A DNA stretch of 64,000 nucleotides. It comes from an uncultured Bacilli bacterium. Its GTDB lineage: Bacteria; Bacillota_I; Bacilli_A; RF39; UBA660. The notes under the pieces are model-generated. The model was not told the origin of the DNA and ran no database searches. It saw nothing but the letters and a program-made list of their open reading frames with translations. The stretch spans positions 41,293 through 105,292 of the forward strand of contig CAKOLB010000002.1 in NCBI GenBank assembly GCA_934096125.1, written 5' to 3'. Below are positions 20,487 through 52,957 of the stretch, piece by piece; within the stretch, counting starts at the first letter, position 1, and each line of letters starts with the position of its first letter. Made by a program: the position numbers and the translations under genes.

Positions 20487-21089
20487 TTATTGTTGAAATT
20501 TTTCGATTGTATCTAGGATTTTGTATATACTGGTATGGGGATTAAAGCTTAATAAATCTTCTTTATCTTTAATAATTCTTTCTTCAAGAGCTTTAGCTAT
20601 ATCTCTGGCACTATCTACATGACAACTAATTATTTTATACATGTCCATACCCTCAGTATACACACCATTTAAATTTTGTAATTCTCTTTTTACGTCTTTG
20701 CTCGATTGAAACTTTAATTTATTGCTACGATAATGCATTATATACCATATTTCAAAAGTTGGTGCAGAAGTAATTATTTCTATACTATTATCAATACACT
20801 TTTGTTTTATCTCTCTTATTTCTCTTATTCGTTTTTCATCTAAATCCGTATCTATTACAAGAAATATTTGGCATGTATCTTCTGATTTTATATCCTCATT
20901 ATCGATATATTTTAGTAAATCATTTAACATGCCTTTAGGGTCAGTGCTATTGCCTGTTGAAAATTGTATTCTAAGACTCCGACTACTATAATTACGAAAA
21001 TAGTAATATTCTGAAGATTTTTTTCCACCTTCCGAACAAATTACAATTAATGGTTTCTTCGCACTTTTCCTTAAGCTTCTTCTAGCCAT
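20487..21089 (-). CDS. RloB-like (Toprim/OLD-like) protein, AbiLii-like partner of the upstream ATPase
   Basis: LIVICSEGGKKSSEYYYF (cf. CEGEKTE-YF), FLVIDTDLD (DxD), APTFEIWYIMHY (cf. SNPCFE.WLLLHF). Confidence 0.7.
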   Translation of the reverse strand: MARRSLRKSAKKPLIVICSEGGKKSSEYYYFRNYSSRSLRIQFSTGNSTDPKGMLNDLLKYIDNEDIKSEDTCQIFLVIDTDLDEKRIREIREIKQKCIDNSIEIITSAPTFEIWYIMHYRSNKLKFQSSKDVKRELQNLNGVYTEGMDMYKIISCHVDSARDIAKALEERIIKDKEDLLSFNPHTSIYKILDTIEKFQQ

Positions 21090-22336
21090 AAATCAGTATC
21101 TTTGATAAATGGAATAGCTCCATAGCGACCATTTATATAACCTTTTTGAATATTTTCATCTTTTCGAACAGAAAACGAATCTAAGGGATATAAGTCTGAA
21201 ACTCCTGTAGATGGATTTTTCTCCGTGAACCATATTTGGTCTCTTCTTAATAGTTCCAAATTGAGTAAATTAGTGGCATGGGTTGTAAATATAAGCTGAC
21301 TGCTTGCTTTATTTATATCTTTGTTATTAAATAATTTAACTATAAATTCTACTAAGGCTGGATGCATACTTTTTTCAAGCTCATCTACTACAATTACTTT
21401 TGTAGTTTCAAATGCTCTTTTTAAAAAGGGAGCAAAAGCAAATAGTACTTTGGTGCCAGATGATTCATCGCTAAGATTAAGTTTATATGTTTGCTTGCTA
21501 TTGTTATCAATTATAACTTCATGTTCTAGCTCTATATTAATATTTTTAACTTTATATGTTCCCCGAGGATTTATAAGTGGAGATGCTAGCATATTAGCTA
21601 CAGTACTATCCATTTCTTTTTCTTCATAATCCACAGTTATATCTTTAATAAGAATATCCGCTTCTTTTAATAGTTTTAACGCAAATTTTTTTAAGTCCTC
21701 ATCGCTACCATATGCTCTTAAATCACTACTAGCAATACTTTCAAATGAATTATAAGTATCTATACTGTTTGCAAACCATAAATAAACATCTTTTGTTTTG
21801 TCGTAGTTCCAAGTAGTTGCAGTTGATAAAAATAGCTTATTTTCCGTATTTTTGATAGCTATTGGTTCTAATTTATTTTTATCACTATTAAATTCATAAT
21901 TATTAGTATTAGTTCTTCTAAAGATATTAGTAGGTTTTTGTGAATAATAAGCGTCAAGGACTTCATCATAAACTTTCTTTGTATCCGCATTAAAGAAATA
22001 ACGATATTTAACTCCATTTATAAGAAATATAAATTCAAATTCACTTGGTTCATTCTTGCTGTTATCATCCAGTAAGAAAGGCTTTACTAAATCAATTTTT
22101 TCTCCAAAAGATATAATATTAGAATTTCTAACCATTAATATGGCGCATGTAAGAGCTTTTAACAAGTTTGATTTACCTGATGCATTTGCTCCATATATTG
22201 CCGCATTTTTAAGTAGTTCAAGATTATTAGTAAACACTATGTTTTCAAGATTTTCATCTCCAAGACCTTTTTCCATGGAAAGTGTTACTTTATTTTTAAA
22301 AGATAAAAAATTTTTAACACTAAATTCTATAAGCAT
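21071..22336 (-). CDS. AAA_15/AAA_21-type ATPase, AbiLi-like (anti-phage/abortive infection ATPase)
   Basis: MLIEFSVKNFLSFKNKVTL... N-terminus, Walker A GANASGKSNLLKAL, C-terminal Walker B region ..VIVVDELEKSMHP..; overlaps the RloB gene by 19 nt. Confidence 0.7.
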   Translation of the reverse strand: MLIEFSVKNFLSFKNKVTLSMEKGLGDENLENIVFTNNLELLKNAAIYGANASGKSNLLKALTCAILMVRNSNIISFGEKIDLVKPFLLDDNSKNEPSEFEFIFLINGVKYRYFFNADTKKVYDEVLDAYYSQKPTNIFRRTNTNNYEFNSDKNKLEPIAIKNTENKLFLSTATTWNYDKTKDVYLWFANSIDTYNSFESIASSDLRAYGSDEDLKKFALKLLKEADILIKDITVDYEEKEMDSTVANMLASPLINPRGTYKVKNINIELEHEVIIDNNSKQTYKLNLSDESSGTKVLFAFAPFLKRAFETTKVIVVDELEKSMHPALVEFIVKLFNNKDINKASSQLIFTTHATNLLNLELLRRDQIWFTEKNPSTGVSDLYPLDSFSVRKDENIQKGYINGRYGAIPFIKDTDLWLEEA

Positions 22337-23602: not shown

Positions 23603-24163
23603 TTACGCTCTTCCAGAATATTTACCATCTTTAGTAGAGATAATTATTTTTTCTCCCTCATTTATAAATAATGGTACCTTTACTATATAACCTGTTTCAA
23701 TCTTAGCATCTTTACTAGCATTTGTTGCAGTATTACCTTTAACCGCAGGTTCAGTTTCCACTACTTCATATTCTATTTTTTCAGGTAGTGTTATACCTAT
23801 AATTTCTCCCTCATAATAATCAATATCTATTTCTAGACCTTCTTTAATAAAGTTTACATTATTTCCAAGGATAGATGATGGTATTTCCATTTGTTCATAA
23901 GTTTCTCCATTCATAAATACATAATCATCACCCATGCTGTATAGATATGAAGCTTTAACTTTTTCAATACGAGCTTTAGTAATCTTAATATTAGTATTGA
24001 ATGTATCTTCAGTTACAGAACCTGTACGAAGATTTTTTCTTTTTATACGGACAAAAGCAGGACCTTTACCAGGCTTAACGTGTTGAAATTCTACTATAGT
24101 ATATAAATTTCCATCCATGATAATAGTCATACCATTTTTGATATCATTAATGTTAATATCCAT
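23603..24163 (-). CDS. efp: elongation factor P
   Basis: 186 aa; VKPGKGPAFVRIKRKNLRTG... (KPGKG loop). Confidence 0.9.
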   Translation of the reverse strand: MDININDIKNGMTIIMDGNLYTIVEFQHVKPGKGPAFVRIKRKNLRTGSVTEDTFNTNIKITKARIEKVKASYLYSMGDDYVFMNGETYEQMEIPSSILGNNVNFIKEGLEIDIDYYEGEIIGITLPEKIEYEVVETEPAVKGNTATNASKDAKIETGYIVKVPLFINEGEKIIISTKDGKYSGRA

Positions 24164-24181
24164 AACTTTCCCTCTTTTCTA

Positions 24182-24346
24182 TTATTTCTTTTCTTTAAAA
24201 GGTTGTGTCTTTCCACATTTTTTGCAGTATCTATTTATTTCAAGACGTTCAGTAGTATTTTTCTTATTTTTACTAACGGGACGAGCTTCAAAACCACAAG
24301 CAGTACATCTCATAGTAACTTCACTACGATTTTCTTTTTTAGCCAT
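24182..24346 (-). CDS. rpmG: 50S ribosomal protein L33
   Basis: Not in ORF track (54 aa). Minus-strand translation [54 protein letters not shown] with CxxC...CxxC zinc ribbon; RBS GAGGAGG 8 nt upstream. Confidence 0.8.
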
Positions 24347-24639
24347 AAATATTCCTCCTCACTTAATTCATCTTAATTTATTATACCAAAATTATTTTAC
24401 ATTTCAACTTTTTTACCTTCATTTTATGGCAATCTCATAAAAAAACAATTAATTTTGTGATAAAAGCATAAGTTAATAAATATTTTAATTATGAGCATTT
24501 ATAGAATTTTATGTGGGTATACATATTCTGAAGATATGGCGTATTTCTTAGAAGTTCAGGAAAACCATTTCACACAATCACTTGATTTAAAAATTGGTAC
24601 TCCATATCATGACACTTTCTCTAGATCTTATTTCTTTTT

Positions 24640-24850
24640 TTAAGGAATATTATATTTTCAATTAGACAAGTTAAAGTTGATGATAAATCAAAGGAAATAA
24701 CTACTATTTATAAATTACAAGTATTACTAGATATACATGGAAAAATTGTAACAATTGATCAATTTGGTGCTATGATGTTATATTAGGTGAAGATCTTTTA
24801 AGAAAGCGTGCTGAAAATTCCATAGATAATTTATCTTTAATTAGAAAATA
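24640..24850 (+). mobile_element. degenerate IS transposase fragment (ISAs1/IS4-superfamily middle region), interrupted by stops
   Basis: Plus-frame translation ...SKEITTIYKLQVLLDIHGKIVTIDQFGAMMLY* resembles the conserved E-I-ta-IP-LL-LD-kGaiVTIDAMGcQ block of ISAs1-type transposases; in-frame stops follow. Confidence 0.4.
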
Positions 24851-25422
24851 GTTCTTAATCTAACAAAGTAGATAACTCTATGGAAGCTAATTTAACATTA
24901 AAGAAAAAAAATGACTAGATATATAAGTAATTTCAAAAATATTGAAAATCTTATAGTTCAAGTCATTCCATCATTAAACTAACTTTGCATCAATTTTTAT
25001 GTAATTGCCATCTCTTCATTTACCTTAAGTTATCCCAAAATACTTATTATATTTAGCTTGAAGTATATTTGTATGAAGGAGGAAAACAGCTAGTGTTATA
25101 TTGCATTCATTTTGATATTATTTATCATACAAATGCTATCAATTATGTTATTTATGCTGTCACTTCTTACACTTGCTAGTCGTTTGTTGTTATTTTTTAT
25201 TACTTTTGCTAGTATTTCGCTATCTTTTGTATTACTTATGACAGTAGTTTGCTACTATTTTGATAGCGTTTTACATGCACTTCGGTAACTTTTTGACAGT
25301 ATTTTGCATGCTGTTCAAAGCACCTTGTAAGCAAGTACTTTATTAAGTTTAAGTATTTATCAATTGAATGTATTTGTATTTTTTTACTATCATAACGCTA
25401 TCATATTACTGACATTTGTATG

Positions 25423-26949
25423 CTACACGGCAATCCTAATTGGATTTACTTTAGTTCCTGTGCCGGATGCATAAGTTGTGGAATCCACGAGATTGAAGGA
25501 CGGCCGGACCACATACGCCTTAGACGCACGGTTGCTGTCCACATACCCAGACGCATACACAACGAACACAGGAAACGCATAGTCCGAATACCGGGAAATA
25601 GTCCATTCATAACTACCGCCATTATATAGCCAGTTTTCTTTAATTCCTTTTCGGATGTCTTCTCCATTATACTTCCAACCAGGCAATGACCAATATTTTG
25701 GACTTGCTGCAAAACCATAGTCACTTGCATACATGAGTCCTATTTTTGCACTATAAGTAGTACTAGCATTCGTCGTCATTTCTTTTGAGTACATGTTCTT
25801 TATTCCTGCAGTCGAAGCCATTGACCTATCAGCTCCTCCGACTTGCCATGTTGTTGTGGCAATTTTACCAGCCCAAGTTGTTCCTATTTTATTTATGAAA
25901 TTTTTATTTAAGTTAGTTTTATTAAGTAAACTTGTACTCCAGTCATTTGAACCATCTCCTTGATTTATTGTTGTGTTTGCTTTGTAATTCCAGCTATATT
26001 CCGTACTTGAACTATAATCTCCATCAGCGCCAAGTAAAGTACTGCTTGCAACTGTGGCTTTAATAAGTTTCACTTGTCCACTTTTTACATAGATTATTCG
26101 GTATAGATTATCTGCTGGACATGGACTTGCAGTTGAACCAAAGCATACATAATTGTCGGGATTTGCTCCTGAATATCTGTAAGAGTCATCTTCTGCTCCT
26201 AGTATAAGTGATGCATCATGGTGATAAATACTTGCTGCTTGACCATATTTTGTACTTAGCGTTGTAAGACATGTTGCAAGGTTACTTCCATTTGTGCATC
26301 CGCTTGTTGCTAACGTATATTGTGAATTTTTGCTTATTTGGAGTACACCAGTAAAGCTCTTACCAGCATTACTGGTTTGGTCTCTATCTAAGTTAACTAA
26401 AGTAACTTGCACTTTCCAATTATCTGTTTTATTTGGAGATGCTGATATTTCATAATAATCAGCTATTTTTATTGGGCCAGTATAAGTTGTGATATCAAAG
26501 CCACTTACTCCACCAGAAGTTACATAATTCATCCCATCAAGCTCTGTTACTACTTTATTATTGGGATCAGTAATTGTAAGAAGCAATTCTGCAGAATTGC
26601 TACTAGTTGTGTATATGAAGGGATTGTTAGTAATATTAAAGTAAAGATAATAATGTTCTGTTGCTTCATTTGTAGCATCGTTGGCTGTTAGCAAAGCTGT
26701 TGCTGTAGTACTACCTGTCACATTACCTTTCCCACTTGCAAATGATGTTTGGTCGGCTGTTAGGTTAACCGATGAACCCACACTAAAAGATAAGTTATCC
26801 GTAGACGACGTTTGTACTCTAACGCTACTATTTGACGTAGCACCACCTTGTGCAACAAAATATGCATACGTTGCTCCTCCTACTACAACAAAAAAGCCAA
26901 ATAACGTTATTAACATTAAAATTTTTTCTTTTCTATTGCTTCTTTTCAT
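25423..26949 (-). CDS. TasA/camelysin-like secreted protein with SipW-cognate-type signal peptide (paralog A, 508 aa)
   Basis: N-terminus ...FFVVVGGATYAYFVAQGGATSNSSV matches the SipW-cognate motif (GGTFAYFSD...). ~95% nt identity to 28520-30058 over the 5' ~1 kb. RBS AAAGGAGTG. Confidence 0.65.
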   Translation of the reverse strand: MKRSNRKEKILMLITLFGFFVVVGGATYAYFVAQGGATSNSSVRVQTSSTDNLSFSVGSSVNLTADQTSFASGKGNVTGSTTATALLTANDATNEATEHYYLYFNITNNPFIYTTSSNSAELLLTITDPNNKVVTELDGMNYVTSGGVSGFDITTYTGPIKIADYYEISASPNKTDNWKVQVTLVNLDRDQTSNAGKSFTGVLQISKNSQYTLATSGCTNGSNLATCLTTLSTKYGQAASIYHHDASLILGAEDDSYRYSGANPDNYVCFGSTASPCPADNLYRIIYVKSGQVKLIKATVASSTLLGADGDYSSSTEYSWNYKANTTINQGDGSNDWSTSLLNKTNLNKNFINKIGTTWAGKIATTTWQVGGADRSMASTAGIKNMYSKEMTTNASTTYSAKIGLMYASDYGFAASPKYWSLPGWKYNGEDIRKGIKENWLYNGGSYEWTISRYSDYAFPVFVVYASGYVDSNRASKAYVVRPSFNLVDSTTYASGTGTKVNPIRIAV

Positions 26950-27239
26950 AAATCTACACTCCTTTTAATATTACCAACTTATCTTACTTTTCATTATACC
27001 AGAATTAGAAATAGCTAGTCAATCGTATAAAACTGTGTTAGTTTAAATTTGAAGTGCAACACTTCACCAATTGAAAAAGACACATGAATAACCTATAATA
27101 TCTGACAATTAAACAAGAAAGGAAAAATTATTTATTAGAACAGGTAAAACTAAAACAATGCCGTACACCGCAGAATACGCTCAGAATAACGCTGATTTTA
27201 AAAGAGGTTTATCTAAAGGTGAATACAAACTAAGGGGAA

Positions 27240-27947
27240 ATGAAAAAATGGCTAAGTTCATTGAAAAGAGATAAATGGGCACAAGATGCAATTGTGGGTT
27301 GTATGAAAAATCACGATTATTTTAACCGAGATGGCTTTGAGCCTATCACTACTCCCACAGTTTACCATGCCATAAGATATCACATCATCAATGTAAGACT
27401 AGAAGATACCAGAAGAATGAAATATAAAACAGAATATAAATACCATAAAAATGATCTTCCATCTCATAAACATCATGCTATCGTTCATAAAGACATTGAA
27501 CTATATGATTCAAAATATAAAGCAAATATTGTTATTAGTAAATACTTAAATACTAAGGATCCTTGGATTATTGTTACAAATAAAGATGTTAAGCATGCTA
27601 TTCAAAATTATTCTCATCGTTTTGGCTCTATTGAATGTGTTTTTAAAAATCAAAAAAGCAATGGATTATTTCTAGAAGCAATTAACAACGCAAGTGAGAA
27701 AGCATATAACACAATGTATACCATGGCCTGTACTGTTGCTTTATTTCTAACTATCATTGGTGCTGATTACTCTAAAAATATCAAATGTTATAAAACTGAA
27801 AAGATTGTTACTCATAAAGTGTATAAAAATAAAGGGAAAGTACGGGTTATGTCCTTATTTAGGATTGGTTTAACTTTGTTTCATCGAGCCGTAAATTCAC
27901 TAAAGTATATTCGATTGCCAATAAGATTTATTCTCTATGATATTTAA
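27240..27947 (+). mobile_element. truncated DDE transposase (C-terminal fragment with Y-x2-R-x4-E-x6-K signature), IS remnant
   Basis: ...KDPWIIVTNKDVKHAIQNYSHRFGSIECVFKNQKSNGLFLE... carries the IS4-superfamily C-terminal E/K block. The N-terminal DDE residues are absent, so it is non-functional. Confidence 0.5.
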
Positions 27948-28124
27948 CACTTTTATGACATTTCATATTAACATTTTCAGCAAAATCTTTTTCGCGTGCA
28001 ATAAATTTAGAAATTGCATATTCACAAGTGTAAATATGTGGTTTTTCACCATCTTAAGCATCTAATTAGCAACATAGTGTATCAAAAAAGAGGCAAATCG
28101 TCGAGCACTGGTCGAACTTTTTGC

Positions 28125-28176
28125 CTCTTTTTGGCTCGGTTTCACCGTTGTTTTTTTAAAACTGTCCGTCAATCAG
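28125..28176. repeat. direct repeat copy 1 (~50 bp; copy 2 at 28474-28523)
   Basis: ctttttggctcggtttcaccgttgtttttttaaaactgtccgtcaatcag vs cttttggttagttttcaccgttgtttttttaaaattgtccgttaatcag. Confidence 0.7.
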
Positions 28177-28212
28177 CTAGTTGCCTTATTCCTCTTTTGT
28201 TTATTCCTATAA

Positions 28213-28305
28213 ATGTATATATATCTATATTTTCAATTATATCGTATATATATCTATATTTTCAATTATATCGTATATATATCTATATTTTCAATTATAT
28301 CGCCT
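28213..28305. repeat. tandem repeat, ~3 x 29 bp (gtatatatatctatattttcaattatatc)
   Basis: Three consecutive near-identical units read directly. Confidence 0.75.
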
Positions 28306-28473
28306 TTCTTTATATTTATATCATTTTTAATAGCATATACTACTAAGTACATGTCATCTAGTCTTTTTTTAGTATAATCTACTACTTTTAAACTTTGCAT
28401 TATGTATTATCCTCCTTCTACCAAAAAAAATATGGAATGTAAATTTATAATTTACACACCATATTATACAACG

Positions 28474-28523
28474 TCTTTTGGTTAGTTTTCACCGTTGTTT
28501 TTTTAAAATTGTCCGTTAATCAG
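28474..28523. repeat. direct repeat copy 2, overlapping the 3' end/stop of TasA-like paralog B
   Basis: See 28125-28176. Confidence 0.7.
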
Positions 28524-30058
28524 TCTATTCTAATCGGGTCGTCGGCGCTACCACTCCCCGATACATAGGTTACAAAAGACTCAAGATTGAAGGACGGCCG
28601 AACCACATGCGTAAACGACGCATCGCTGCAGCCCACATACCCAAATTGATACACAATGAACACACGATTCGCATAGTTCGAATCCCGGGAAATAGTCCAT
28701 TCATTACTGCCACCATTATATAGCCAGTTTTCTTTAATTCCTTTTCGGATGTCTTCTCCATCACCTTTATAACCAGGCAATGACCAATATTTTGGACTAG
28801 CTGCAAATCCATAATCTGATGCATACATTAACCCTATTTTTGCTGGGTATTCTGTGGCATTATCAGTTGTATTTGTTGTTACCGGATTTACGATTTCATT
28901 TTGATATGTTGTTGCTGGTACTACGTCACGTATATTTGCGGATGTATTTCCCCCAACTTTCCATGTTGTAGTTGCTATCTTATTTGCCCATTCTGTTCCT
29001 ATATTTGTTATGAAATTTGTATTTAAATTTGTTTTATTTAACAAACTTGTACTCCATGTATTTGAACCACTTCTTGAATTTATTGTTGTGTCTGCTTTGT
29101 AGTTCCAGTAATAACCCCTAGATCCATAATCTCCATCCATTCCAAGTAAAGTATCGCTGGCAACTGTGGCTTTAATAAGTTTCACTTGACCTTCCTTAAC
29201 ATAAATTATACGGTATAAATTATCTTCTGGACATGGACTTGCAGTTGAACCAAAGCATACATAATTGTCGGGATTTGCTCCTGAATATCTGTAAGAGTCA
29301 TCTTCTGCTCCTAACGTTAAATTACTATCATGATGGTATAAACTTGCTGCTTGACCATACTCCGCATTTAAGTCAGTTAAACATGTTGCTAAATTACTAC
29401 CACTAGTGCATCCGCTTGTTGCTAGCGTATATTGTGAATTTTTGCTTATTTGGAGTACTCCACTAAAGCTCTTACCAGCATTACTGGTTTGATCGCTATT
29501 AAGATTAACTAGTGTTACTCCTACTTTCCAGTTATCTGTTTTATTTGGAGATGCTGATATTTCATAATAATCAGCTAGTTTTATTGGGCCAGTATAAGTT
29601 GTGATATCAAAGCCACTTACTCCTCCAGAAGTTACATAATTCATCCCATCAAGCTCTGTTACAACCGTCCCTGTTGGGTCTGTGATGGTTAGAAGTAACT
29701 CTGCAGAATTATCAGATGTTGTGTATATGAAAGGATTATTTGTAATATTAAAATAAAGATAATAATGCTCTGTTGCTTCATTTGTAGCATCGTTGGCTGT
29801 AAGCAAGGCTGTTGCTGTAGTACTACCTGTCACATTACCTTTCCCACTTGCAAATGATGTTTGATCGGCTGTTAGAGCAATAGATTTACCCACACTAAAA
29901 GAGAGATTATCAGTTGTTGATGTTTGTATTCTTACGCTACTATTTGACGTAGCACCACCTTGTGCAACAAAGTATGCATATGTTGCTCCCACAACTAACA
30001 CAAACAAAAACATTAAAGCCAAGATATACTTAACTTGTTTACTTTTTAATCTATCCAT
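28520..30058 (-). CDS. TasA/camelysin-like secreted protein with SipW-cognate-type signal peptide (paralog B, ~512 aa)
   Basis: Start ATG at 30058 (MDRLKSK..) preceded by AAGGTGGA; the ORF-track start 30067 is a GTG inside the RBS. N-terminal 300 aa are nearly identical to paralog A, with variable patches in the C-terminal half. Confidence 0.65.
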   Translation of the reverse strand: MDRLKSKQVKYILALMFLFVLVVGATYAYFVAQGGATSNSSVRIQTSTTDNLSFSVGKSIALTADQTSFASGKGNVTGSTTATALLTANDATNEATEHYYLYFNITNNPFIYTTSDNSAELLLTITDPTGTVVTELDGMNYVTSGGVSGFDITTYTGPIKLADYYEISASPNKTDNWKVGVTLVNLNSDQTSNAGKSFSGVLQISKNSQYTLATSGCTSGSNLATCLTDLNAEYGQAASLYHHDSNLTLGAEDDSYRYSGANPDNYVCFGSTASPCPEDNLYRIIYVKEGQVKLIKATVASDTLLGMDGDYGSRGYYWNYKADTTINSRSGSNTWSTSLLNKTNLNTNFITNIGTEWANKIATTTWKVGGNTSANIRDVVPATTYQNEIVNPVTTNTTDNATEYPAKIGLMYASDYGFAASPKYWSLPGYKGDGEDIRKGIKENWLYNGGSNEWTISRDSNYANRVFIVYQFGYVGCSDASFTHVVRPSFNLESFVTYVSGSGSADDPIRID

Positions 30059-30129
30059 AACGTCCACCTTACATTTATTATAGTACTTAGCATTTCCAAT
30101 TTATACTTTCATATGTATTCATTTTGCAA

Positions 30130-32073
30130 TCAATTTGCATTTTCTTTTTCTAATAAAACATTAATTATATCTTTAGTTATCTTACTGGCACCATAGTAAA
30201 AGCCATCAGTTCTCCCCTTTTTATGGGAAATATTTGGGGTCATAACAATTAAACTGTATCTTGGGTTTGTGGAAGGATAAAAACCTATAAAACTAGAAGA
30301 AATTGTTGCAACATCAACTTTTTTGTCATTATTTATGTCAAGAAATGATTCGCTAGTTCCAGTTTTGCCAGCGAAATCAAGCCCTTTTGGAACATAAATT
30401 TTTCCTGTTCCCTCTTTTAAAACTAGTCTTAACCCCTCTTTTATTCTTTCTTGATAAACTTCATCTACAGAAACACTGTTTAATACTTCGGGTTTATTTT
30501 CATAAATAAGCGAACTATCATGCCTTATTTCTTTCATTAAACTAAGTTTAGTTCGCTTTCCTGTTGCAAGAGATGAGGTATACTGAAGCATTTGCACTGG
30601 AGTATATGCATCATACTGACCGATTGATAAGTTGAGCAAAAGGTCATCAGCGATTTTTTCACCCTTTAATCCTTCACTTTCAAGAGGAAGGTCAATACCA
30701 GTTTTTGTGCCAAGGCCAAAACTTGCGAGCATTGAGCGATAGATATCAAAATGTTTTTGGCTAGCATTTAACTTCATATTGGGAGTATAAGTATTACCTG
30801 TTAGTTTGATAGCAATTAAATACTGGTAGTAGTTTGAAGAATTAGCCAAAGCTGTTAAATCATTAATTTTACCTAAGTTTTTAAAACTACATTTTTTAGG
30901 AATGTAATATAGTTTAACACAAGCATCATTAACATACTCTCCAGGGGTTATTAAGCCATTTTGATAACCAACGGCAATAGTTGCTCCTTTTACACTACTG
31001 CCAACGGTAAAAGAAGTATTAATGGTATTTAAACTAATGTCACTAAAAGTGTTATCATCATTTAATCTTTGGCCAGCAATAGCTAAAACTTCTCCCGTAC
31101 TTGGGTCACTTAAAAGAGCATAACTATCTTTGTAGTACTCGGTATTGGGATAAGTCTTTCCGAGTGTAATTTTATCTTTTAATATTTCTTCTATTTTTTC
31201 TTGAAGTTCTATATCTATTGATAAAACTAAATCATTTCCCTTTTCTTCTTCTTTTACTAAATATAAACTTTTATCTTTATTTACTTTGTAAATAGCTTTT
31301 TTACCTTGCAAATAGTTATCATAAACTTTTTCTAAGTAACTAATTCCTACGGTATCTGATATGCTGTAGCCACTTTTTAAATAGTTAGTAATATTATCTT
31401 CGGGGATTTTGCCAATAGAGCCAAAAATATTTTTTAATGTATCATTATATAAGTATTTACGCTTCCAAGACATACCACCGATGATGCCAGGAAGATTTTT
31501 TTCAATAACTTTGGCATATTCACTATCACTAACACCACTAAATATTAGCTTTTTACTGTAAAGGTAACCAGTATTCATAACACTATAAATATAAGCTGCT
31601 TTTTTATTTTCTTCATCATAGTTTATCATTTCATCAGTTATTCTCTCAATTTTTCTTTTCTCTAGCTCTTTTTTAGTTATTTTTCTTTTTTCTAAATCAG
31701 CATATTCTTTACTGGTTATTAAATTTTTTCCATTATTATTAGTAGCTAAATAATATGTTTTTAAGGCGCTAATACTTCCCCTTGGCACACTTAAAATACT
31801 AGCAAGTTTTTTAGATATTTCTAGTTCTTTTTCAGTCGTTATTCCTTTTAACTTTTCATAATATATAGCTTTAGTTCCCTCATTATCAACGAGTACTTTG
31901 CCATTTCGGTCAAGTATTCTTCCCCTTGGGCTACTTGGACCATAAACAACAATATCAGTCTTTGCAGATAACTTTTTATCATAATACTCTTTATCTTTAG
32001 ATATATATATTAATTTAAAAAAGAGAATACTAAACATAGTAAGTAAAAATATATATAATGTAAATTTTTTCAT
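30130..32073 (-). CDS. class B penicillin-binding protein (PBP2/SpoVD-like transpeptidase)
   Basis: 647 aa; N-terminal TM; transpeptidase motifs SSVK (SxxK), SxN, AGKTGTSE (KTG). Confidence 0.8.
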   Translation of the reverse strand: MKKFTLYIFLLTMFSILFFKLIYISKDKEYYDKKLSAKTDIVVYGPSSPRGRILDRNGKVLVDNEGTKAIYYEKLKGITTEKELEISKKLASILSVPRGSISALKTYYLATNNNGKNLITSKEYADLEKRKITKKELEKRKIERITDEMINYDEENKKAAYIYSVMNTGYLYSKKLIFSGVSDSEYAKVIEKNLPGIIGGMSWKRKYLYNDTLKNIFGSIGKIPEDNITNYLKSGYSISDTVGISYLEKVYDNYLQGKKAIYKVNKDKSLYLVKEEEKGNDLVLSIDIELQEKIEEILKDKITLGKTYPNTEYYKDSYALLSDPSTGEVLAIAGQRLNDDNTFSDISLNTINTSFTVGSSVKGATIAVGYQNGLITPGEYVNDACVKLYYIPKKCSFKNLGKINDLTALANSSNYYQYLIAIKLTGNTYTPNMKLNASQKHFDIYRSMLASFGLGTKTGIDLPLESEGLKGEKIADDLLLNLSIGQYDAYTPVQMLQYTSSLATGKRTKLSLMKEIRHDSSLIYENKPEVLNSVSVDEVYQERIKEGLRLVLKEGTGKIYVPKGLDFAGKTGTSESFLDINNDKKVDVATISSSFIGFYPSTNPRYSLIVMTPNISHKKGRTDGFYYGASKITKDIINVLLEKENAN

Positions 32074-51507: not shown

Positions 51508-52020
51508 TTAAGAGGCTGCAGGTGCTGCACAACTGTCTGTTATATTATTCGAACCATCAGTTACATCATCAGTTGCTACATCTTTTCCATTACCAGCATT
51601 TTTAACATTTAATTTACCATTAGTCATGCTAATTTTATATGTATAAATATTACCAGATTTTGTAACAGTTACACATCCTACATAATCAGTTTTGGCTTTA
51701 AAGAAACCACCAGTAATTAAATCACCAATTTTAACATTTGTTGTTCCACCGTTATCAACTGGCAAAGTTTTAGCATCAGAATCACCGCTCAATGAATTAT
51801 TAGTAAAATATGTTTGAGCAGCTTCAATTGCAGAGTTAGCTTCTAGAGCAAATACTTGTTTACGAGCTTCTGCCATTCTTGGAAGAACTGCTGTTGCAGC
51901 GATTAACATAACGATTGATAAAACTACGATAACTGCTAAGAGTTCAATTAATGTAAACCCATTCTTTCTTAATGCTTTTTTATTATTATCTTTTTTTTCT
52001 ATATCTTTATTCATTTTCAT
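51508..52020 (-). CDS. type IV pilin / pseudopilin-like protein (prepilin N-terminal cleavage-methylation motif)
   Basis: KNGFTLIELLAVIVVLSIVMLIAATAV: class III signal peptide G/FTLIE motif. Confidence 0.75.
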   Translation of the reverse strand: MKMNKDIEKKDNNKKALRKNGFTLIELLAVIVVLSIVMLIAATAVLPRMAEARKQVFALEANSAIEAAQTYFTNNSLSGDSDAKTLPVDNGGTTNVKIGDLITGGFFKAKTDYVGCVTVTKSGNIYTYKISMTNGKLNVKNAGNGKDVATDDVTDGSNNITDSCAAPAAS

Positions 52021-52095: not shown

Positions 52096-52957
52096 CTAAC
52101 TTATCCTAATAGGGTCATCTTTTTGCCCCGTACCTGATGAATATATTGTTGATGCAAAACATACATAATTATCGGGGGTTGGTCCAGAATACCTATATGA
52201 GTCATCGCCTGCTTTTAAGGTAAGTGATGCATCATGATGATATAAACTTACTGCCTGACCGTACTTATTACTTAAAGTTGTAAAGCATGTTGCAAGGTTA
52301 CTCCCGCTTGTGCATCCACTTGTTGCTATTGTATATTGTGAGTCTTTGCCTATTTGCAAAATACCACTGAAACTTTTACCGGCATTACTTATTTAATCAC
52401 TATCTAAATTAACAAGTGTTACTTGCACCTTCCATGTATCTGTTTTACTTGGAGAAGCTGAGATTTCATAGCTTGATTGTGCCTGTATAAGTTGTTATAT
52501 CAAAGCCACTTACTCCACCAGACGTGACATAATTCATGCCATCTAGTTCTGTTACTATCGTCCCATTTGGGTCTGTTAAAGTAAGTAGGATTTCAGCAGA
52601 ATTGCTACTTGTTGAGTATATGAATGGGTTATTTGTAATATTGAAATATACATAGTAATGCTCGGTTGCTTTGTTGGTGGCATTATTAGCTGTAAGCATG
52701 GCTGTTGCTGTTGTACTTTCCGAAACATTTCCTTTCCCACTTGCAAATGATGTTTGGTCTTCTGTTAGGGCGATAGATGAACCCATACTAAAAGATAAGT
52801 TATCAGTTGGGGATGTTTGCACCCGTACAGAGCTATTTGACGTAGCACTACCTTGCGCTACAAAGTAAGCATATGTTGCCACAATAAATAAAGTAAGTAT
52901 TAGAACTATTGTTATAGGTAGTATAACTTTTTTTGATTTCGTAAGTAATTTTCCCAT
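52096..52957 (-). pseudogene. frameshifted TasA-like family member (N-terminal 163-aa and C-terminal 87-aa ORFs in different frames)
   Basis: 52466-52957 encodes ...ATYAYFVAQGSATSNSSVRVQTS...FDITTYTG. 52096-52359 encodes ...TSGCTSGSNLATC...DDSYRYSG..DNYVCF..DPIRIS. The 52360-52465 segment is out of frame. Confidence 0.65.

Follow-up and report, generated by a model that had tools for sequence, protein, structure and literature searches.

Two tandem genes, referred to here as A and B (Table 1), lie on the minus strand of a 64,000-nt stretch of contig CAKOLB010000002.1 from an uncultured Bacilli bacterium (the window, with a GC content of about 30%). We consider it about 75% probable that both are members of a large, unnamed family of cell-surface proteins with a DUF6273-like head, present in low-GC uncultured Bacilli of the human gut at several to at least ten copies per genome, and that their variable regions derive from a diversity-generating retroelement (DGR) and are now static, A and B being diversified by recombination and the exchange of modules. 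In a DGR, a cDNA is produced from a template repeat with random substitutions at adenines, and this cDNA replaces the variable region of a target gene. An earlier interpretation of the window, made from the DNA letters alone (the sequence-only reading), correctly recognized two tandem paralogs of about 510 aa, described them as TasA/camelysin-like proteins varied by gene conversion, and missed that the hypervariable stretch near their C-termini is a DGR variable region located in a C-type-lectin-like domain. The discrete variable patches of the two genes therefore have two different origins. The TasA/SipW label has to be dropped, and the idea of a mosaic produced by conversion stands.

The variable regions and their template

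In the family alignment, approximately the last 33 residues before the VRPSFNL motif form a fixed scaffold (ISR..x.A..VF.V...G.V....A....VRP), and the positions between the scaffold residues are hypervariable and rich in N, S, Y, D, H, C, T, G and F. The DNA encoding this stretch reaches a GC content of 0.51-0.53, compared with about 0.30 for the genome. Between A and B, residues 453-477 accumulated 12 amino acid changes against 1/13 synonymous, and the differences are found almost only at codon positions 1 and 2. Both proteins close with the ending noticed previously, ...VVRPSFNL...SG.G...(N/D)PIRI.

The template used for comparison is located on a related contig, L091, and not in the window. 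Mismatches between this template and the variable region of A fall on 16 of its 28 adenines and on 3 of the 72 remaining positions (p=1.4e-8), while for B they fall on 15 of the 28 adenines and 6 of the 72 other positions (p=3.1e-6). The variable region that lies next to the template on L091 differs from it at 16/28 adenines and 0/72 other positions (p=2.3e-11). Other paralogs of the same lineage (L002/L003, L085 and L094, the last on the same 165-kb Hadza contig as the counterpart of the window's region) show the same pattern as A and B. Judged from these sequence comparisons, both genes have variable regions that go back to a DGR-type template.

Cassettes of this kind are indeed found beside relatives of A and B, and in two reference loci a reverse transcriptase (RT) gene lies a short distance downstream of a family member. 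One of them, L017, is a textbook DGR, with the target gene, a 100-nt repeat encoding ISRNADNAYNAFNVNNTGNVNNNNANN..., two small open reading frames (ORFs) and the RT in this order, and with all 17 mismatches between the C-terminal stretch of the gene and the repeat at adenines (17/31 at repeat adenines, 0/69 elsewhere). The scaffold pattern built from A and B retrieved a metagenome contig, L084, which carries a close family member, a template repeat and a decayed cassette. Furthermore, paralog P0141 (cluster representative P0004, 85% identical to A) adjoins an intact cassette in L091-L093, in the order target, template repeat, MutS_I-like gene, bAvd and RVT_1. The MutS_I-like gene is of the type placed in the 'MSL' accessory class by Wu et al. 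(PMC5758913).

Two additional observations were made on the cassettes. Directly 3′ of the template repeat, three cassettes from different genomes carry nearly the same sequence of about 70 nt (L017 1818-1890, L084, minus strand, about 1700-1780, and L091 8860-8935), which is probably the structured spacer in the RNA of the DGR. L084 has a broken avd-like ORF and retains only C-terminal fragments of the RT, while in L057 (1596-1635) the RT is intact and the template repeat is reduced to about 40 nt, and the cassette has therefore been lost repeatedly in this group.

Protein clusters at 90% identity were used to compare the behavior of the variable regions in populations, with 25 members for the DGR-adjacent paralog, 19 for A and 7 for B. 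Members of the first cluster (P0004/P0141) differ at 11-17 residues, almost all at positions 454-479 and only at codons that have an adenine in the template; rewriting of this paralog is under way in natural populations. Diversification confined to the variable region, as seen there, was found neither in the cluster of A nor in that of B. Instead, what distinguishes the alleles of A and of B is a set of discrete blocks that are combined in varying ways (residues 2-23, 189-208, 308-332, 367-401, 423-428 and a C-terminal module at 469-507), and in one B allele, P0122, the entire C-terminal third is replaced, variable region included. Because no variation restricted to the variable region occurs in these clusters and 3-6 mismatches to the template lie outside adenines, the variable regions of A and B are DGR-derived and currently static, with a few non-adenine changes.

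Alternatively, a DGR at another site of the same genome could act on A and B in trans, as active remote targets, and rewrite their variable regions occasionally. The adenine bias of their mismatches would agree with this, as would the 3′ boundary element GTGGT(C/T)CGGCCGT, a GC-rich 13-nt sequence resembling an initiation of mutagenic homology (IMH) site, which is common to A, B, the active target and the template; the 21 nt downstream of it differ from the active target at 6 positions in A and at only 2 in B. Remote targets have also been documented for non-phage DGRs (PMC5758913), comparable to the seven non-adjacent targets of Treponema denticola. However, the non-adenine mismatches (3 in A, 6 in B) compare with 0 in the adjacent target, whose cluster varies only in the variable region, while no such restricted variation appears among the 7 and 19 distinct cluster members, and an identical B protein is present on 12 contigs from several gut metagenomes. 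We regard active remote targeting as rather unlikely.

Compared with the DGR variable proteins of C-type-lectin fold that are already described (TvpA of Treponema denticola, PDB 2Y3C, Mtd of the Bordetella phage and LdtA of Legionella), the present family shares the template codons rich in AAY and the adenine-specific mismatches, and with the Treponema DGR it also shares a chromosomal, non-phage setting with several dispersed paralogs. It differs in its enlarged DUF6273-type lectin-like domain, in the N-terminal anchor and beta-sandwich, and in its far larger size, and the copies in the window differ in being static, with non-adenine changes and no cassette within 64 kb.

Table 1. Positions of the features discussed, numbered from the first nucleotide of the window.
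Feature	Position	Strand	Remarks
Gene A	25423-26949	-	508 aa; predicted anchor helix, beta-sandwich and C-type-lectin-like/DUF6273-type domain
N-terminal basic stretch and hydrophobic helix of A (residues 6-34)	26848-26934	-	from the model; ends in T-Y-A-Y-F
Beta-sandwich domain of A (about residues 50-210)	26320-26802	-	strands 52-206 in the model
C-type-lectin-like/DUF6273-type domain of A (about residues 225-508)	25426-26277	-	
DGR-type variable region of A (VR_A; residues 451-483, ISR...VVRP)	25500-25599	-	GC 0.51
Gene B, tandem paralog of A	28520-30058	-	512 aa from ATG; alternative GTG at 30067 gives 515 aa
DGR-type variable region of B (VR_B)	28594-28693	-	GC 0.53
Recombination/conversion tract 1 in A	25993-26028	-	3 substitutions relative to L086
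Recombination/conversion tract 2 in A	26302-26383	-	10 substitutions relative to L086
5′ leader and promoter-like region of A	26950-27033	-	blastn match to L091 6916-7000
Truncated insertion sequence (DDE, IS4-like) transposase ORF	27240-27947	+	only 27450-27947 transposase-derived
48-nt repeat, copy 1	28476-28523	-	starts at the stop codon of B
48-nt repeat, copy 2	28129-28176	-	extended by a hairpin and T-run as far as about 28075
3 x 29-bp tandem repeat	28215-28315		overlaps the 3′ end of the 44-aa ORF (28266-28400, minus)
Decayed third paralog	52096-52957	-	family sequence in two ORFs (163 aa and 87 aa)

Protein family and predicted architecture

The family to which A and B belong has more than 7,900 matches in the protein collection, none of them named and nearly all from gut metagenome assemblies. 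In species-representative genomes, an alignment-based scan located 580 family loci, with many loci per genome, under the genome labels uncultured Bacilli/Tenericutes, Firmicutes bacterium CAG:460, Clostridium sp. CAG:609 and Candidatus Onthocola; a scan of genome contigs with protein A as the sole query returned no relatives. A confident AlphaFold model of A, built on a family alignment of 30 sequences (mean pLDDT 81.7), consists of a helix at residues 6-34, a disordered linker, a beta-sandwich and a large alpha/beta domain that extends to the C-terminus.

In regard to the C-terminal domain, the fold search list includes proteins similar to FGE (PvdO, SUMF2 and EgtB/OvoA) together with a C-type lectin, and Foldseek also supports 9qa6 as a fold match. 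In its fold, the lectin-like domain corresponds to a DUF6273 domain of solved structure, and the variable region is placed at the C-terminus of this C-type-lectin/FGE-like fold. The solved example is the N-terminal domain (residues 31-322) of the IgA protease 9QA6, annotated as DUF6273 and described as an enlarged C-type-lectin-like domain (PMC12402451; PMC12237041), and DUF6273 domains are reported DGR targets in phages (PMC10743442). At the level of sequence families, A and B have a single Pfam/NCBIfam match, to DUF6273 (residues about 326-487), which stays below threshold; PF19789 is matched by 13 of the 30 aligned family members (E<=0.1, best 1.3e-4), and a search of PDB sequences with the family profile gave no match. 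The likeness to the DUF6273 proteins (PF19789; the Thomasclavelia ramosa IgA protease, the phage tentaclins and the DGR targets of Faecalibacterium prophages) accordingly lies in the C-lectin-like fold, in the targeting by DGRs seen in phages and in the matches of those 13 members, while the family differs from them by the sub-threshold scores of A and B (13 bits against 23.5) and by carrying the domain at the C-terminus of a cellular, membrane-anchored protein and not in a peptidase or a phage tail.

Where the lectin-like domain begins, alignment A1 of the family shows an invariant motif, Y-H-H-D ... V-C-F-G-S ... C-P (residues 242-278 of A, window about 26116-26226). Since the homologous domain of the IgA protease holds a structural zinc through Asp, His and Cys, this motif could be a metal site.

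According to the opposing proposal, A and B are TasA/camelysin-like subunits of a biofilm fibre, exported through a SipW-type signal and varied by gene conversion for phase or antigenic variation. The hydrophobic helix of both proteins is closed by ...G(G/V)ATYAYFVAQGG, in which T27, Y30 and F31 are (near-)invariant in alignment A1, and the segment G-A-T-Y-A-Y-F resembles the G-G-T-x-A-Y-F core of SipW-dependent signals; this resemblance is the part of the signal-peptide claim that holds. A faint match of B to TIGR04088, the model of that signal type, reaches 8.2 bits (E=2.9) against a cut-off of 19, with none for A, and the Peptidase_M73 family (PF12389) is matched by 1 of the 30 family members (E=0.02) and by neither A nor B at E<=1. 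Among the called genes within 10 kb there is no S26-type peptidase, Peptidase_A8 being the only peptidase listed. Neither TasA nor camelysin appears in the two fold-search lists, and the beta-sandwich of A yields weak matches to generic beta-sandwiches (Bd1399, CUB and GOLD) instead of a TasA-like jellyroll. Similarity to TasA/camelysin is thus limited to a short N-terminal motif and an all-beta domain after the signal, in a protein of other architecture, more than half of which consists of a lectin-like domain that TasA does not possess. Although the recombination tracts that this proposal invokes are real, we consider the fibre identity highly improbable.

In our reading, the basic N-terminus and hydrophobic helix suggest a signal-anchor or a cleavable signal, with predicted N-in membrane anchoring or export and an extracellular head. 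The helix would hold the protein in the membrane or direct its passage across it, and a beta-sandwich stalk would display a C-type-lectin-like (DUF6273-type) head of double size, whose ligand-binding face would be encoded by the DGR-type variable region of about 100 nt. The proteins may in this way be surface-exposed binders of glycan or protein ligands, and a ligand-binding role of the variable face is suggested by analogy with Mtd, TvpA and the DUF6273 phage proteins.

Several points weigh against the reading that we prefer. The PF19789 scores of A and B (13.1 and 13.6 bits) stay below the cut-off of 23.5, and surface location, anchoring versus cleavage, and the ligand are all predictions. 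In the window there is no template repeat, as blastn of both C-terminal regions returned A and B alone, and neither RT nor avd was detected in the 64 kb by a Y-x-D-D scan and by tblastn with the RT, avd and accessory proteins of L017. The connection between the window and L091 is one of sequence similarity (template scaffold and a leader 95% identical) and of co-occurrence in the same studies. Stasis is read from 7 distinct cluster members for B and 19 for A, and B, because of its near-perfect 3′ boundary region (the 13-nt GC-rich element and its flank), could still be a competent remote target. Related searches outside the window found no RT or template repeat in two other 21.5-kb stretches of the 165-kb Hadza contig, and no match to the variable-region scaffold pattern in viral contigs. 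The second of these stretches does contain additional family members, at least P0026 and perhaps also an unannotated gene of 498 aa.

Recombination in genes A and B

The sequence-only reading had put the nucleotide identity of the two genes at about 95% over roughly the first 1 kb. The measured identity amounts to 79.6% for the complete genes (505 aligned codons) and rises to 83.6% within the first 333 codons, with 77-79% at the protein level, and values of 95-100% are reached in short stretches only. The example offered, 26041-26200 against 29161-29320, is 8 nt out of register, the true offset being 3112. On the other hand, the divergence is mosaic and not uniform, as had been supposed. The longest run of identity between A and B measures 87 nt, compared with a permutation mean of 28.5 and a maximum of 72 (reached in 0/2000 permutations), the run without synonymous changes has P=0.0125, and 25-codon windows with 0/24-0/25 synonymous differences adjoin windows with 11/24.

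Recombination is also visible between strains. L086, a Hadza gut contig of 165,621 bp, has the same order as the window (B, 44-aa ORF, truncated insertion sequence (IS) transposase, A), and over 21,539 bp the two differ by 13 substitutions, every one inside gene A and confined to two tracts that together cover 118 bp. These tracts, together with the block-wise alleles, bear out the earlier suggestion of gene conversion or recent recombination. No donor is present in the window, and since neither gene B nor the decayed third paralog matches either allele exactly, the donor should be sought elsewhere in the genome or in another strain. Furthermore, 15 proteins carry one and the same variable region although the identity of their upstream parts drops to 79%, and modules bearing the variable region therefore move by recombination. 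Strain differences at this locus now come from recombination and not from the retroelement.

Uneven constraint alone can also give patchy divergence, and A and B might in that case be ordinary tandem duplicates shaped by such constraint and by positive selection, with no contribution of a retroelement or of recombination. This would leave the bias towards adenines, measured against an independent template (p about 1e-6 to 1e-8), the blocks in which synonymous divergence is zero and the confinement of 13/13 strain differences to 118 bp of 21.5 kb without explanation, and we attach almost no weight to it.

A and B diversify by short recombination or conversion tracts and by exchange of whole modules, including those with the variable region, and according to the reading that we favor they would represent 'archived' binding specificities of a variable adhesin or receptor repertoire, no longer current targets of the retroelement. 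The previous description as a phase- or antigenically variable surface-fibre family is then fair as far as a variable surface-protein family is concerned, and its fibre part is unsupported. As a more tentative extension, which we consider possible but clearly short of even odds, the family could work as a two-tier system in which one DGR-served 'master' paralog keeps inventing lectin-site sequences, and conversion between paralogs and module exchange copy them, together with other blocks, into at least ten full-length paralogs. If true, gut Bacilli with small genomes would possess an archive of binding specificities that is both heritable and combinatorial, with A and B as two of its entries.

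Surface-protein families varied by segmental gene conversion are known from Treponema pallidum (tprK), Mycoplasma genitalium (mgpB/MgPar) and Neisseria (pilE/pilS). The locus resembles them in having tandem and dispersed paralogs together with a pseudogene, short conversion tracts between otherwise identical strains, and shuffling of modules. Unlike in those systems, nothing points to one expression site that silent cassettes supply, neither gene B nor the pseudogene proved to be the donor of the tracts, and the paralogs are full-length with promoter-like leaders of their own.

DGR mutagenesis, remote and multiple targets, cassettes of the MSL type and gene conversion in surface-protein families are all already known, and what is new is the family itself, a very large cellular one whose DGR-type variable proteins bear a DUF6273-like head. 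The combination of a single active copy with many static paralogs, driven at present by recombination, is worth recording, without being categorically new. It would provide thousands of unnamed proteins with a structural and mechanistic annotation (membrane-anchored, lectin-like, DGR-type variable binders), in a family abundant in uncultured human-gut Bacilli, including those of Hadza and other non-industrial cohorts. It also indicates that DGR-written sites can last as fixed 'fossil' variable regions in many paralogs while one copy stays active, and offers a concrete system for studying how hypermutation and gene conversion jointly build adhesin and receptor repertoires in host-associated bacteria.

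Surroundings of the gene pair

The intergenic region between A and B holds the elements listed by the sequence-only reading. The truncated transposase is confirmed by residues 71-235 of its ORF, which share 87% identity with residues 232-396 of a DDE transposase of 396 aa that is intact in L030 and L043; the last 165 residues are kept, the first 231 have no counterpart in the window, and a complete DDE catalytic domain is missing. The full-length relative itself matches DDE_Tnp_1 weakly (19.1 bits, cut-off 23). The 3 x 29-bp tandem repeat is present as described, and the direct repeat of about 50 bp overlapping the stop codon of B corresponds to two 48-nt copies with 90% identity.

The second copy is part of an element of about 70 nt (stop codon, 48 nt, hairpin and T-run; window 28075-28176) that is conserved as the 3′ terminus of family genes across several genomes, directly following family stop codons in L007, L014, L023, L040 and L043. 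In the window this 3′ end element is duplicated around a 300-nt insert (28177-28475, minus strand), which contains a 44-aa ORF with a strong ribosome-binding site that runs into the tandem repeat, and which is kept in L086-L090. In L030 and L043 the 3′ end element is followed by a convergent IS transposase of 396 aa (L030 11780-12970 and L043 10913-12103, both minus strand), 0.2-0.25 kb 3′ of the family genes, and the junction is the same as that of the truncated copy in the window (27450-27947). The shared junction suggests a preferred insertion site or a co-transfer of the gene 3′ end with the IS.

Over the 85 nt upstream of its start, A shares 95% identity with the leader of the DGR-linked paralog on L091. 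This upstream stretch contains a good sigma-70-like match, TTGACT-18-TATAAT at 27022-26993, which is a consensus match only, the scan for terminators and promoters having given overall no excess above chance. A search of 24100-30300 against Rfam returned no match at E<=1. On the other side, the stretch of about 1 kb that separates the stop codon of A from the L33 gene (24441-25422) has no called gene and no Rfam match, and only the L33-proximal part of about 240 nt (about 24171-24409) is kept in other genomes (L028, L043), apart from the near-identical L001 and L086. A prophage origin of the locus was considered and rejected because it is surrounded by genes with housekeeping functions (PBP2, endonuclease IV, EF-P, L33 and a sigma factor).

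The third copy, previously called a pseudogene, is indeed a decayed paralog in which a frameshift and an internal deletion have removed most of the lectin-like domain and the variable region. Directly downstream of it lies a prepilin-type gene (51508-52020, minus strand; GFTLIELL, TIGR02532 E=4e-8), and prepilin-like ORFs are located on the same strand 1-3 kb downstream of family genes in L048, L061, L073 and L077 (about 1 kb in the last three). An association of the family with prepilins was nevertheless discarded, as the motif occurs in 8 of 94 scanned sources (seven other loci and the window, one of them doubtful), which is not clearly above chance. Finally, at 20487-22336 on the minus strand, an AAA_21 ATPase of 421 aa adjoins an RloB-like protein of 200 aa, a pair typical of OLD/Abi-like defence modules.

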